Positions 10,260-20,853 of a stretch of 32,000 nt of DNA are shown here, piece after piece; the first letter of the stretch is position 1; each line of letters begins with the position of its first letter. The DNA comes from Candidatus Heimdallarchaeota archaeon B3_Heim. Lineage in GTDB: Archaea; Asgardarchaeota; Heimdallarchaeia; Hodarchaeales; Hodarchaeaceae. The DNA lies in contig NJBF01000014.1 of NCBI GenBank assembly GCA_003144275.1, positions 30,001 to 62,000 of the forward strand. The letters are read 5' to 3'. The position numbers were made by a program, and so were the translations under genes. The notes under the pieces were generated by a model. That model was given only the letters and a program-made list of their open reading frames with translations. It did not search any database and was not told the DNA's origin.

Positions 10260-10769
10260 CAGTTCATCACCAAGATACCCTAAATTGTAGAAGGTTTTCT
10301 GGATTTATAATAATTTTTAATTAAGTACCTAATGAAAATCCATTAGTATGACAAAGCCAAGCAATTGATCATTCCTGAAAAACAGCTTTACACCAGAAAA
10401 TGCCAGAAGAAAATTGGTTATTTGTTGAATGACTTAAAAATTTAATAACTTGGCCCATATAATACACTTTCTAACTTTTGATTGAGTAATAGTATCTAAA
10501 TCTAATCCTTTTCTGCTTTTATCTTAGAAAGAGTATCTTTATAACACCTTTGCAGCTTTTATTTTAAGCGAATCCCTCAATTGAGGATTTCACTTTTTGA
10601 TACATTCAATGAATTGCTTACCCAGAATGATAAATGTGTGTTGAGAAATACTATTAGACTGGTGAGTAGATGTGTCTATTACAATCTGTGTAGGAAGAGT
10701 GTTTTGATTGTATTAAAAGAGGGAGAATTATCCCCAAATGAGAAATAAGAATATTAAAAAGGTGATTTT

Positions 10770-13169
10770 ATGAGTCTGGGACTCGAATCATTAGATTTAG
10801 ATAATCAGGAAAGTAAACTTTACATAATTTTGTTAGCAAACGGTCCACAAAGCTTAGGTGAACTAATTAAGAATACTGAGTTTTCCTCGGCCGAGATAAC
10901 TAAAGCGTTGGAAGGGTTGAAGAAAAAAGAATATGCCTTCGATATCCCTGGTATTAGCATGAGATATCACGCAATTTTACCCTTTAAAGATTTGAAATCG
11001 GCTGGAGAAAAAACAATTGCTGAAATAGAAGCTCTTGCTGCACAAATAGGAGAGAATGTTGCAAAAAAAATGGATATCATTCTCTCTACAATGCGTGATG
11101 AGTCTGAGCGGATGAAAACAGCCTTAACAAGTGCTCAATCATCAATCAGTCAATCTGATACACAATCCCAAACAGAAATTGAAGAACTAACAGCAAAAGC
11201 AGTTCTTGAAATTGAACAAACTAATGATGAAAGCATCAAAATTATGGGTGAAATGATTAAGAAAAAAGAGTCTGAACATCAGGAATTGTTATCGGGAATT
11301 GGATCAACATTTGAAGAGAAAGCAGGATTGTTTGAAAATAAATACCAAGAAACAAATGCTTTGCTAGAAAATAAATACAGCGAAGGACTAGATACCATAA
11401 AAACGGCAGAAGCTAATCGAAATGCAAATTTAAAGGGATCAGTTGAGGAACTATCTGCCGGAACAAGTGCTAAACTAAGTCAGGGCTTTGAAGAAGTTCA
11501 CACTTCAATGAAGAATACTGGAGAAACAGTGATTACATCAATAGATAAACAAGAGGAAAATGCCACTAATTTCATAACAAATTCTTCCACCGAGTTATCA
11601 AGTGTAGTAAGTAACACGAGTTCTGAAGGCAAGCAGGAAATAAAAGATTCACTGAAAACATATCACGAAAATTTAAGTCAAAACCTTGATTTAAAGAAGG
11701 AAGAAGCAGTTAATTTATTCCAAAGCTCACGTGATCAATTCACTAGTAAGACCCTAGATAACGCTCAAAACATTCAAGAGTCGATCAATGAGGTACTTAG
11801 TACAGCTCAAAATCAAATCTCAGAAATGATGCAGAAAATCAATGATTCTCTCAACGAGAAATTTACGGCCGCAAAATCGCAAGTTGATAATTCAATGGGA
11901 ACTTATTCTGACTCTTTGAAGCAACAGGTTGATAGTGATTTTGAGAAGGTGATTTCTGATACAACAGGGACATTAGCTGATCTTGTTCAAAACGCAAACA
12001 GTACCTATGAGAAAGCTGTTACTGAGATAGAATCTCATTATGCTCAGTTTGAAACAGATTCAAATACTAAGATAGATACGTTTAAAGAATCTTCACTTAA
12101 CGATTTGAAGCAATCGATTTCTTCCCTAAAAACCGAGGTTCAGAAGCAAATTTCAGACTTTATACAAACGATGAAACCCCAGGAATTATTCCTTAAAGAT
12201 GAGTTAAATCGCTTCACATCCGAATTTTCAGATAGTCAGAGTCTATCTCTTTTACAATTCACAGAAACTATTGATTCATTCAAAGCAGAAGTAACGAACA
12301 AAAATCAGGAGTTATCTTCTCTCATCCAAAGCGAGATGAGCGGATTAAAGCAAACTATCCAAGAAGGGATAACTGAGATGAACTCTTTCGTACACTCTTA
12401 TGATGAAAAGTATGGAACTACTCTAATGAATGCAGCTACAAAAGCATCTGAAGGACTAATCTCAAAAACTCGTGGTCTACAGGAGAAAACTGTTGCTACC
12501 ATTAATCACATGTCAAAATCTGCAGTCAATCAGTTAGGTGAAGTACACCAGGTAATATCAGATGGTATCCAAACAGAAATATCCACTTTGGAGAAAGAGC
12601 TATCCGATTATTCTGCTAAATTTCAAGAAGTTACTAAAAAGAACGATGATGCCATGAAGAATTATCTTTTCTCCCTAGAAAAGCTTGCATCACTTGTTAC
12701 TGACACCAAACATCCTCCAGTCCAAACAGCTCCAATTGTTTCAAAGGAAGCCAATTTGACTTATATTCAAGGGATGTTTAATCGATTGAAAGGCGGTATA
12801 ACTCTCTTGATTCCATTTGTAGAGGATATTCCAGTAGACCTCATTTTAGCTACGAAAAGTCATCAACGAGTAAATTTGGTAACAATGATAGATCCTAATA
12901 CGCATATTGACTTATTAAAGAAACTTTTACAGAAACCAAATGTAAGAGTTCGTCAAATCGACTCTCGTAAATTTGAGGGCGTAGAAGGGTATTTAGCTGC
13001 CGATCGTGATGCAGAAGAAGTACTTATTGGGGTTAAAGAAGATAATGGGGATACTATAGGAATTGCTAGCCAAGCAGATTCTTTTATCGTCTTGATGGGA
13101 AAAATTGTTTTGGGAGATTATTTTTTGGCAAGATCTACCGAAATTAGTCGTGCTGAAGTAGGGGTGTAA
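10770..13169 (+). CDS. TrmB-like protein: N-terminal wHTH, ~575-aa helical/coiled-coil region, C-terminal TrmB/PLD-like alpha/beta domain
   Basis: N-terminus LGLESLDLDNQESKLYIILLANGPQSLGEL...ALEGLKKKEY...RYHAILP is TrmB-wHTH-like. Residues ~72-647 contain one Pro and no Trp or Cys. C-terminal ITLLIP, VNLVTMID, NVRVRQID, AADRDAEEVLIG resembles TrmB C-terminal domains. AAGGTGA upstream. Confidence 0.75.
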   Translation: MSLGLESLDLDNQESKLYIILLANGPQSLGELIKNTEFSSAEITKALEGLKKKEYAFDIPGISMRYHAILPFKDLKSAGEKTIAEIEALAAQIGENVAKKMDIILSTMRDESERMKTALTSAQSSISQSDTQSQTEIEELTAKAVLEIEQTNDESIKIMGEMIKKKESEHQELLSGIGSTFEEKAGLFENKYQETNALLENKYSEGLDTIKTAEANRNANLKGSVEELSAGTSAKLSQGFEEVHTSMKNTGETVITSIDKQEENATNFITNSSTELSSVVSNTSSEGKQEIKDSLKTYHENLSQNLDLKKEEAVNLFQSSRDQFTSKTLDNAQNIQESINEVLSTAQNQISEMMQKINDSLNEKFTAAKSQVDNSMGTYSDSLKQQVDSDFEKVISDTTGTLADLVQNANSTYEKAVTEIESHYAQFETDSNTKIDTFKESSLNDLKQSISSLKTEVQKQISDFIQTMKPQELFLKDELNRFTSEFSDSQSLSLLQFTETIDSFKAEVTNKNQELSSLIQSEMSGLKQTIQEGITEMNSFVHSYDEKYGTTLMNAATKASEGLISKTRGLQEKTVATINHMSKSAVNQLGEVHQVISDGIQTEISTLEKELSDYSAKFQEVTKKNDDAMKNYLFSLEKLASLVTDTKHPPVQTAPIVSKEANLTYIQGMFNRLKGGITLLIPFVEDIPVDLILATKSHQRVNLVTMIDPNTHIDLLKKLLQKPNVRVRQIDSRKFEGVEGYLAADRDAEEVLIGVKEDNGDTIGIASQADSFIVLMGKIVLGDYFLARSTEISRAEVGV
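11328..11393 (+). repeat. in-frame 33-nt tandem repeat (11-aa unit) inside the TrmB-like gene
   Basis: ttgtttgaaaataaataccaagaaacaaatgct / ttgctagaaaataaatacagcgaaggactagat = LFENKYQETNA / LLENKYSEGLD. Confidence 0.65.
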
Positions 13170-19265: not shown

Positions 19266-20435
19266 TCAGGGCGTATCATCTGGATTTAGATTATCGGAGT
19301 TTTCTTGGTTTTTATTTTCAACGATTGAAGATAATTCAGTTGGTAAATGGATTTCTGCTGTCTTTATGAGCATAGAAAGTTCTTCAGCATGCAAAGCTAC
19401 AGTTGAGAGTAAGGAAAAGACCGCTTCATACTTTTCATTAACTTTTCGATCAATTACAGCCTGAATTTCACTTTGGATTCGTTCCAGTTCTTCTTTATTT
19501 GTTTGCATACTCTGAGATTGAGATTCAATTATTGTTTCGTATTCTTTCATCGAATTTTGCAGGTTTTGGGTAATCTCTTCTCTTGAACGTGATGTCTGGG
19601 TTTGAATTTCTTCAGAGAAGCTAGCAAAAGCCTGTTGAAGATCATCGCCTACTTTTTTTCTTGTATAGTGTTCCGATACTTCATTCAGAATTTGAATATC
19701 GGATTCTTTGAGATTTTGTGTCGTGAGGGTAATTTCAGTCCTAATATTTTCATTAAAACTCTCTAACATTCGGGAAAAATTTTCAAAATGAGATTGCTGG
19801 TCCTTTTTTGATAATGAAATAATTTCCTGGAGTTTTTCTTTAAAGCTTAAGAGACTCTCCCTCACATTACTAAACGCCTCTGTATGAATTTGAGTAATAT
19901 TATTTAATGATTTGACACTAGCTTCTAGTGTAGTTGTAGTTTTTGTAACCTCTTCGAATTTTGTTCGTACTAGCTCTCCCAAAGCAGAAACAGATGATTG
20001 TAAATTAGATTCACTCTTTTCAAGATGCCCTGAAATTTCCGAAAACCCCTCCTTTACTTCAGCTGTAAGATTGCCTAATTTCTCTTCCTGTTCTTGCAGA
20101 GAATTATTTAAGTTCTCATGGTCTTGTTTCTGTGAAGATATTTCGGCTTTGAAATTATTTTCTTGTGTTTCCATTGCCACGGTAAGAGTCTGTATTTCAG
20201 AGGAAATTTCTTCCTGCACATGCTTTATCTCTGAATTAAAATTATCATTAAAATCCCTCATTTTTTTACCAAGTTCTATATCAAGATCCTGAGATTTTGA
20301 TTCCCAATTGTTTATTTTAGACTTTAATTCTTCAATTGTTGCAGAATTCTTTTGTAAATAAGTTGTTAACTCTAAAATCCTTTCGGCTAATTCTAGTTCT
20401 TCAGGATTTGAATCTATTTTCTCTTCTTCAGCCAA
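19266..20435 (-). CDS. long coiled-coil/helical protein (~390 aa)
   Basis: E/S/Q/L-rich and proline-free over ~350 residues. TTG at 20435 with upstream GGAG is the likely start (track start 20459) and overlaps the upstream gene's stop. Confidence 0.8.
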   Translation of the reverse strand: MAEEEKIDSNPEELELAERILELTTYLQKNSATIEELKSKINNWESKSQDLDIELGKKMRDFNDNFNSEIKHVQEEISSEIQTLTVAMETQENNFKAEISSQKQDHENLNNSLQEQEEKLGNLTAEVKEGFSEISGHLEKSESNLQSSVSALGELVRTKFEEVTKTTTTLEASVKSLNNITQIHTEAFSNVRESLLSFKEKLQEIISLSKKDQQSHFENFSRMLESFNENIRTEITLTTQNLKESDIQILNEVSEHYTRKKVGDDLQQAFASFSEEIQTQTSRSREEITQNLQNSMKEYETIIESQSQSMQTNKEELERIQSEIQAVIDRKVNEKYEAVFSLLSTVALHAEELSMLIKTAEIHLPTELSSIVENKNQENSDNLNPDDTP

Positions 20436-20853
20436 TCTCAGTCTTCTCCTTAAAATCATTTATTGAATCTTCAAAGGATATTCTAATATCTTCAAGGCGG
20501 TTAAATAATCGTGTTTCAATACTTTCTTGTAGGATGAAATCGTTAATTTGGACTTTTTCACGAATCACTGGAGCAAAACGTTTCCAATGTGATTGAATTT
20601 CAGTTATATTTTTTAAATTTGAGACAATAAGAACTTTCAATTCTTCACTTAACATATTTACTAGGAGTCCATACTTTTCACTACCAACTTGAATCTCTAA
20701 GAACCCCTCTTCAAGTGTAGGAATTCTTTTAATCGCCAGATAAAAATTTGGGTTTTCTTGAACCACAGGGAATAGCTCTCGAGGCGTTTGGATGAATATA
20801 CCGGCAACAGAAAACCCTATAGCGAATTTGTCAAGTAGCTCTCTTAGACTCAT
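20428..20853 (-). CDS. hypothetical protein with a Roadblock/LC7- or longin-like pattern plus a C-terminal helix
   Basis: Apparent order: helix LRELLDKF, strand VAGIFIQT, strand, helix FYLAIKRI, strands FLEIQVG, KYGLLVNML, LKVLIVSN, helix EIQSHWKRFAPVIREKV. ATG 20853 is preceded by GTGAT. The fold call is by eye only. Confidence 0.5.
   Translation of the reverse strand: MSLRELLDKFAIGFSVAGIFIQTPRELFPVVQENPNFYLAIKRIPTLEEGFLEIQVGSEKYGLLVNMLSEELKVLIVSNLKNITEIQSHWKRFAPVIREKVQINDFILQESIETRLFNRLEDIRISFEDSINDFKEKTEIG

Follow-up and report, generated by a model that had tools for sequence, protein, structure and literature searches.

The window analysed here is a 32,000-nucleotide stretch of Candidatus Heimdallarchaeota archaeon B3_Heim (Hodarchaeales; contig NJBF01000014.1, positions 30,001 to 62,000). 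Its forward strand carries a gene (P0001, 10770..13169, +) for a 799-amino-acid protein, hereafter the rod protein, made up of a TrmB-type winged helix-turn-helix domain (wHTH; 10782..10976, +; residues 5–69, PF01978), a hendecad coiled-coil rod of about 51 repeats of 11 residues (10986..12674, +; residues 73–635) and a C-terminal alpha/beta domain of phospholipase D (PLD)-like fold that is devoid of the HKD motif (12732..13166, +; residues 655–799). AlphaFold2, run on an alignment of 19 orthologues, models the rod as two helices, 73–353 and 360–635, and the predicted turn between them (11829..11846, +; residues 354–359) coincides with the mirror point of a conservation reflection described below. 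Prolines are found at positions 26, 60, 71, 470 and from 649 onward; P470 (codon 12177..12179, +), invariant among orthologues, is the only one between residues 72 and 648 and the sole proline of the rod. The first-pass annotation of this DNA had proposed a wHTH, a long helix with a single proline and a PLD-like domain in a layout resembling that of TrmBL2, and Pfam, profile searches, AlphaFold2 and Foldseek all agree with it, the helix comprising about 563 residues. The homologues collected (n=22) are nearly all 799 residues long and at least 65 orthologue clusters share the wHTH-rod-PLD-like architecture, indicating that the open reading frame is more than a chance one.

The N-terminal domain scores 31.8 bits against PF01978 (cut-off 25.6 bits), and a profile of the N-terminal region of the family matches the PDB chains of TrmBL2 (5bpd, E=6e-13) and TrmB (3qph, E=1.5e-12), with alignments that continue past the wing into the helix. 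The C-terminal domain was modeled with a pLDDT of 88.7 over residues 625–799 (alignment of 24 family sequences). Its top Foldseek matches, in the PDB as well as in the Swiss-Prot models, are TrmBL2, which is the best one, and TrmB (probability 1.0, TM-score by query 0.52–0.65), followed by PLD, Nuc, FAM83 and cardiolipin synthase proteins. This domain is linked to TrmB through the fold search alone, as the sequence profile found no such link: there was no match to PF11495 (Regulator_TrmB) in Pfam and no TrmB chain among the PDB sequences matched by the C-domain profile. Family-wide, the only persistent features of the C-domain are one proline and two adjacent Glu residues in an RDxEEV motif, of which the first occurs in at least 90% of the sequences; a single Pro and a single Glu count as invariant. 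The HxK(x)4D motif, or His-Lys-Asp triad, is not conserved in the family C-domain alignment, and an active PLD enzyme was rejected. The sugar-binding subdomain of TrmB (G320/E326) is missing as well, since the protein ends with its PLD-like domain. The same order of wHTH, amphipathic helix and PLD-like domain without a sugar-binding subdomain is seen in TrmBL2 (5box, 5bpd, 5bqt), whereas TrmB (3qph, 2f5t), which has the wHTH and PLD-like fold in common with the rod protein, possesses an effector-binding subdomain that the latter lacks. TrmBL2 is 264 residues long as compared with 799, and the rod protein thus corresponds to a TrmBL2 layout whose helix has been lengthened internally by about 540 residues.

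The rod protein belongs to an Asgard-wide family without a name, whose members range from 750 to 1800 residues. The C-domain profile retrieved 553 clusters at 50% identity, 376 of them with E<=1e-10, and the domain is nearly always found at the very C-terminus of proteins of 700–1800 residues. A family match is present in 167 of the 400 genomes of the phylum that were searched, often in two copies, and the members carrying a taxon name are all from Asgard archaea (Hodarchaeales, Heimdall-, Thor-, Frey-, Jord- and Helarchaeota). Source annotations are limited to 'HTH domain-containing protein', 'TrmB' or 'hypothetical', and our searches of a paper library did not turn up any account of these proteins.

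About 51 hendecads, not heptads, follow one another without interruption in the helix. Fourier analysis of residues 80–645, averaged over the orthologues, gave a dominant hydrophobic period of 3.67 (11/3) with a power of 12.5, the next peak having a power of 1.1 and the heptad (3.5) of 0.2. The hendecad phase is continuous over residues 71–620, with a drift of only about 100 degrees over 550 residues and no break at P470. Arranged in rows of 11, the sequence displays three core columns in an a/d/h pattern, conserved hydrophobic positions representing 24%; the period, the a/d/h core and the sustained phase are all those of a hendecad coiled coil. Used as controls, the SMC arms encoded in the window have heptad-like periods of 3.51–3.55 and a neighbouring 397-residue coiled coil one of 3.58, while all 19 distant homologues analysed fall at 3.65–3.68.

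An 11-residue amphipathic periodicity is also common to the 11/22-mers of apolipoproteins A-I, A-IV and E (PF01442), which raises the question of whether the protein could be an apolipoprotein-, perilipin- or LEA-like 11-mer protein coating lipid or membrane surfaces. The middle of the protein matches PF01442 weakly, with 57.9 bits, and the protein has weak PDB matches to apolipoproteins A-I and A-IV; we ascribe both to the shared periodicity. The Pfam score is under the 90-bit cut-off, the hydrophobic stripe is a narrow seam of 3 positions in 11, as in two-stranded coiled coils and unlike the broad face of lipid-binding 11-mers, one proline stands in place of proline-punctuated 22-mers, folded TrmB-like domains flank the helix, and the mirror symmetry of its conservation (see below) points to helix-helix pairing. 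A lipid-binding protein of this type was therefore rejected, and we consider it scarcely credible. The membrane scaffolding envisaged by the first-pass annotation found no support either.

The length of the rod is held exactly within a clade and differs between clades. The alignment of the 19 orthologues (43–78% identity) contains no indel over 799 columns. An anchor distance was measured between two conserved residues, the Pro closing the wHTH and the Thr with which the C-domain begins; it equals 582 in 59 of 60 orthologues. The corresponding value is 593, that is exactly one hendecad (+11) more, in 7 of the 9 proteins of about 808 residues, which is the length class of the homologues from the sister family, and 1553 in 11 of the 14 members of a clade of 1795-residue proteins. 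Whole multiples of 11 also separate ten more length classes from 582; over the 63 distinct anchor distances, the residues modulo 11 did not depart significantly from uniformity (chi-square P=0.19). That length is exactly conserved at identities down to 43% suggests that it is the selected property, in which case we would be dealing with a molecular ruler.

The helix break predicted by AlphaFold2 at residues 354–359 lies in the exact middle of the rod and, taken alone, could be an artefact. Conservation computed column by column is mirror-symmetric about the same point: the reflection correlation peaks at i+j=711, a centre of 355.5 (P=0.0055, 0.55% of hendecad-row shuffles being as good at any centre), and the next-best values are at hendecad-related offsets from 711. 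G239 and P470, the two residues that are both invariant and helix-perturbing, add up to 709, which is near the mirror sum. The symmetry was replicated in the independent 1795-residue clade (ten genomes, 47–55% identity), for which seven of the eight best centres are at 871.5–877.5, the geometric centre being 877.5; none of 300 shuffles was as good, and prolines occur at 866 and 871. A second replication came from a group of about 1000 residues, which has its mirror centre at 460.0 as compared with 460.5 (P=0.002), and one of about 910 residues at 412.5 as compared with 414, in the same direction and not significant. Across the family, 11 of the 63 length classes carry a proline in the 15-residue stretch at the predicted centre, where about 3.5 would be expected (P=6e-4), three of these 11 classes belonging to one clade. 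Reflection of the hendecad-stripe phase gave a broad plateau, with a coherence of about 0.95 for centres 315–372, which is compatible with an antiparallel arrangement and non-discriminating.

The mirror-symmetric conservation about 355.5, where AlphaFold2 puts the turn, argues for antiparallel in-register pairing of the two rod halves. The coiled coil of TrmB is itself antiparallel (F81/I91', F84/L88') and was described as a domain-swap hinge (PMC4158304). An amphipathic helix directly following the wHTH, a feature of the TrmB family, is found in the rod protein from residue 73, and we infer that it pairs in the same antiparallel manner; in TrmB this helix has only a few turns, with about 11 residues pairing, whereas here it forms the rod. 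A single extended helix of about 85 nm is thus probably not what the protein forms, given the AlphaFold2 model, the mirror tests and the central prolines. We favour an intramolecular hairpin of about 42 nm, which is the probable arrangement. The alternative, an antiparallel homodimer measuring about 84 nm and carrying heads at both ends, is possible and appreciably less likely.

Several points weigh against this view. Hairpin and antiparallel dimer give an identical contact map and are not separated by these data, and the mirror test and the AlphaFold2 model share one alignment, so that they are not fully independent. The 799-residue clade has neither Pro nor Gly at the rod centre where the turn is predicted. 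The mirror test gave no centre peak in the 808- and 750-residue groups (14–27% identity, gappy alignments), nor in a nearly identical set of 761-residue proteins. Separately, a basic and aromatic loop is present exactly at the rod centre in several clades, for example RGSAWKALFLGQHK and GFFWMGKKKKYK; it was seen in family members P0188, P0205, P0235, L084, P0165 and P0232, is absent from the clade of the window and looks like a binding tip at a hairpin apex.

In the favoured hairpin, a long intramolecular antiparallel coiled coil would join the N- and C-terminal domains, as in SMC and Rad50 arms. The arm of the rod protein would have about 280 residues, the same order as the roughly 330 estimated for the SMC encoded next to it. 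Unlike SMC and Rad50, the rod protein has neither an ATPase head nor a hinge domain, its hendecad period differs from that of the SMC arms in the window and no homology with them was detected.

Taken together, the best overall explanation, to which we would give an even chance, is that a TrmBL2-type protein equipped with an antiparallel hendecad rod acts as a structural spacer or tether. The short antiparallel dimerisation helix of a TrmBL2-type protein would have grown into about 51 uninterrupted hendecads. The halves of the resulting helix would pair in register, residue i lying opposite residue ~711-i, which would make the wHTH and the inactive PLD-like domain meet as one TrmBL2-like head capping a rod that is stiff, acidic and two-stranded, and the chain of the ~42-nm hairpin would follow the topology of an SMC arm. 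The head may bind a partner, which could be DNA, as for TrmBL2, or else a protein, and keep it at a fixed distance, the rod protein being neither an enzyme nor an ordinary regulator. If this structural reading is right, the rod would be a natural hendecad coiled coil of unusual length and regularity, with about 51 repeats and no register break (relatives reach up to about 140 repeats), and a small archaeal chromatin or regulator fold, that of TrmBL2, would have become a rod with the topology of an SMC arm. The hendecads, the antiparallel pairing proposed here, the ruler-like fixed length and the Asgard-wide family are new relative to the first-pass annotation.

That annotation also expected the N-terminus to bind DNA; its identity as a TrmB-family wHTH stands, whereas DNA binding by the head appears doubtful from the sequence, because the domain is acidic and the contact Tyr and Arg residues of TrmBL2 are not kept, which weighs against the DNA-binding form of the spacer. 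The wHTH has a net charge of -3 (pI 4.9), as compared with +1 for the corresponding TrmBL2 stretch, and the rod and the C-domain have net charges of -37 and -3. In the profile alignment, R48/Y50/D51/R54 of TrmBL2 correspond to E42/T44/K45/E48, so that the contact residues R48, Y50 and R54 are lost; T44 and K45 also take the place of Tyr50 and Asp51, the DNA-recognition residues in the recognition helix of TrmB (PMC4158304, Table 1). These contact positions are variable or acidic across orthologues and the wider family. Homology leaves room for DNA binding, and a head that binds protein instead is to be taken seriously as an alternative.

Bacterial coiled-coil-rich proteins assemble into higher-order structures, and the rod protein could likewise serve the cell as a scaffold or cytoskeleton-like element without binding DNA, the wHTH and PLD-like domains being protein-binding modules and the rods serving as spacers or building higher-order assemblies. 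The acidity of all three parts of the protein would fit this proposal, as would a recognition helix devoid of the conserved Tyr and Arg at positions that vary across the family, the length fixed within clades, the lack of a conserved genomic context beyond one genus, and the basic and aromatic central loops of some clades, which resemble a binding tip. Yet the wHTH is clearly of the TrmB family, with a wing motif, G61...R65, that does not vary among the orthologues (at least 90% of the wider family sample have G61), DNA binding is common to all of its closest characterised relatives, and filament formation is without support. We therefore regard a scaffold without DNA binding as rather unlikely.

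The genes flanking the rod gene encode components of an SMC complex. On one side are the divergent scpB1 (P0003, 9696..10259, -; PF04079, 5.9e-19) and scpB2 (P0005, 8473..9672, -; PF04079, 4.1e-16), the latter encoding a kite paralogue with acidic extensions. On the other are a convergent gene for a probable kleisin ScpA of 286 residues (P0002, 13174..14034, -) and smc (P0004, 14076..17663, -; SMC_N, 4.9e-49, plus a hinge match). The candidate ScpA gave no Pfam match even at E=10, whichever of six homologues was searched; a profile built from six sequences has four PDB matches, three of them to C-terminal winged-helix chains of ScpA (4i99_C, the best, E=0.021; 5xg3_C; 5xns_C), and the gene is always located between smc and scpB. 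The coordinates agree with the position given in the first-pass annotation, antisense between scpA and scpB1, with only 4 nt between the rod stop and the scpA stop. The proposal that the rod gene splits a usual smc-scpA-scpB run is likewise borne out by the sister family of the same order, in which smc-scpA-scpB1-scpB2 are contiguous and co-directional (L065, G078:C625; L066, G079:C701). This uninterrupted cluster implies that the two tandem kite paralogues predate the insertion of the rod gene.

The order scpB2-scpB1, rod gene, scpA-smc is found in all 16 loci that we examined in the GTDB genus of the window, including those in which the rod proteins are only 43–47% identical while SMC and ScpA are 70–72% and 73–77% identical. 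The rod gene thus stays linked to smc and scp within the genus and not at the loci examined outside it. Homologues of the sister family (808–812 residues) are on other contigs, no smc, scpA or scpB gene lies within about 8 kb at any of 20 loci from other families, and neighbour clustering revealed no recurrent neighbour among these 20 distant loci. As linkage is restricted to one genus and the sister cluster is intact, the rod gene entered the smc cluster once, in one insertion event. The wider neighbourhood, with POR genes and small GTPases, is also syntenic in the genomes of the genus, so that retention of the rod gene beside smc may reflect inertia, and its antisense orientation places it outside the smc/scp operon. 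Neither linkage across lineages nor co-transcription, as would be looked for in an SMC accessory protein, was found. Linkage within the genus is weak evidence of a functional tie to SMC.

A dedicated partner of SMC-ScpA-ScpB1/B2, which would make direct contact and serve as a loader, as an adaptor on the arms or, like TrmBL2, as a positioning factor or barrier, has nonetheless some arguments on its side: the rod gene sits between scpA and scpB1 throughout the genus, down to 43% identity, its product would bring a winged-helix head to a complex whose kites, ScpB1 and ScpB2, and ScpA-like kleisin are winged-helix proteins too, and a search with the SMC protein found a single SMC in the genome of the window. 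Moreover, TrmBL2, whose architecture it shares, has a documented functional link to Smc-ScpAB, since experiments in Thermococcus kodakarensis showed it to be a roadblock that stalls the complex at several sites, dif among them (PMC11840125); a link to SMC thereby becomes thinkable and its prior somewhat higher. We consider such a dedicated partner unlikely, given the single linkage event, the rod homologue lying apart from the contiguous cluster of the sister family, the 20 distant loci away from smc and scp, the antisense gene outside the operon, the much faster evolution of the rod protein than of SMC or ScpA, and the frequent occurrence of two family copies per genome without a matching SMC pattern. 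The chromatin bridge working with SMC that the first-pass annotation put forward is thus supported in part, by the linkage in the genus and the TrmBL2 precedent, and weakened by the single insertion, the antisense orientation and the doubtful DNA binding.

For the structural spacer or tether that we prefer, the antisense insertion into the smc-scpA-scpB cluster in one genus would be a hint of work on the nucleoid beside SMC-ScpAB. A bolder version would see these Asgard proteins as a large, so far undescribed family of 'headed rulers', in which a TrmBL2-like head on an antiparallel hendecad hairpin of clade-fixed length, resembling an SMC arm, serves as nucleoid barrier, tether or spacer beside SMC-kleisin-kite complexes, the gene having been captured by the smc cluster in Hodarchaeales for that reason. 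We hold this to be distinctly unlikely; if true, it would define a new class of chromosome-architecture factors in the closest archaeal relatives of eukaryotes. Since TrmBL2 positions Smc-ScpAB in Thermococcus, the arrangement seen in Hodarchaeales would provide a concrete candidate for an SMC-associated factor in a lineage near eukaryotes.

A preprint (10.1101/2024.01.07.573240) reports three kite paralogues in Hodarchaeales, along with operons of the condensin-like and SMC5/6-like types. Two genomes of the genus contain a second, divergent and uninterrupted smc-scpA-scpB cluster (L067, G059:C485; L068, G062:C70), with SMC proteins that are 30–36% identical, one of them 1472 residues long.

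The divergent intergenic region between scpB1 and the rod gene (10260..10769, 510 bp) raises the question of whether the protein is an ordinary TrmB-family transcription factor regulating itself and the divergent scpB1-scpB2 genes from this shared region. Family membership and the divergent arrangement would suit such a regulator. An alignment of six close orthologous regions also revealed, in an otherwise divergent sequence, a strongly conserved block at 10510-10605, about 175–260 nt upstream of the rod ATG, that carries a TATA-like CTTTATAA and an imperfect palindrome, AATCCCTCAATTGAGGATT, at 10566-10595. The block is conserved in the subclade of 72–94% identity and absent from that of about 45% identity despite the same gene order, and no clade-wide common operator is evident, unlike for TrmB. 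In addition, a rod of at least 560 residues with an exactly conserved length would have no role in such a regulator, the recognition helix is acidic and not conserved, and the sugar-binding subdomain is missing. An ordinary transcription factor is thus highly improbable. As RNA, the block folds better than shuffled sequences (z=-3.4); no significant Rfam family was found in the intergenic region, and promoter and terminator scans performed no better than on shuffles. Two 151-nt contigs of one metatranscriptome (X20) map to the rod gene with at least 99% identity, which is too little to claim expression or to order genes by it.

Three further observations were made. One genome of the genus contains, just downstream of the full rod gene, a partial second copy of its C-terminal part, covering the last 100 residues (G067:C18:84020-84310, inside L017; E=1.5e-49; a 142-residue open reading frame). 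A 3-kb contig in a genome of another family (G039:C92, L045) carries a rod C-terminus together with an ScpA 75% identical to that of the window, and looks like a mis-binned contig of the genus of the window and not a true occurrence. Finally, the 397-residue helical protein used as a control (19266-20459, -), whose period is neither that of a heptad nor that of a hendecad and which has faint Apolipoprotein matches, adjoins a Roadblock-like open reading frame and twin small GTPases, and its counterpart is kept at the syntenic loci L001 and L003.

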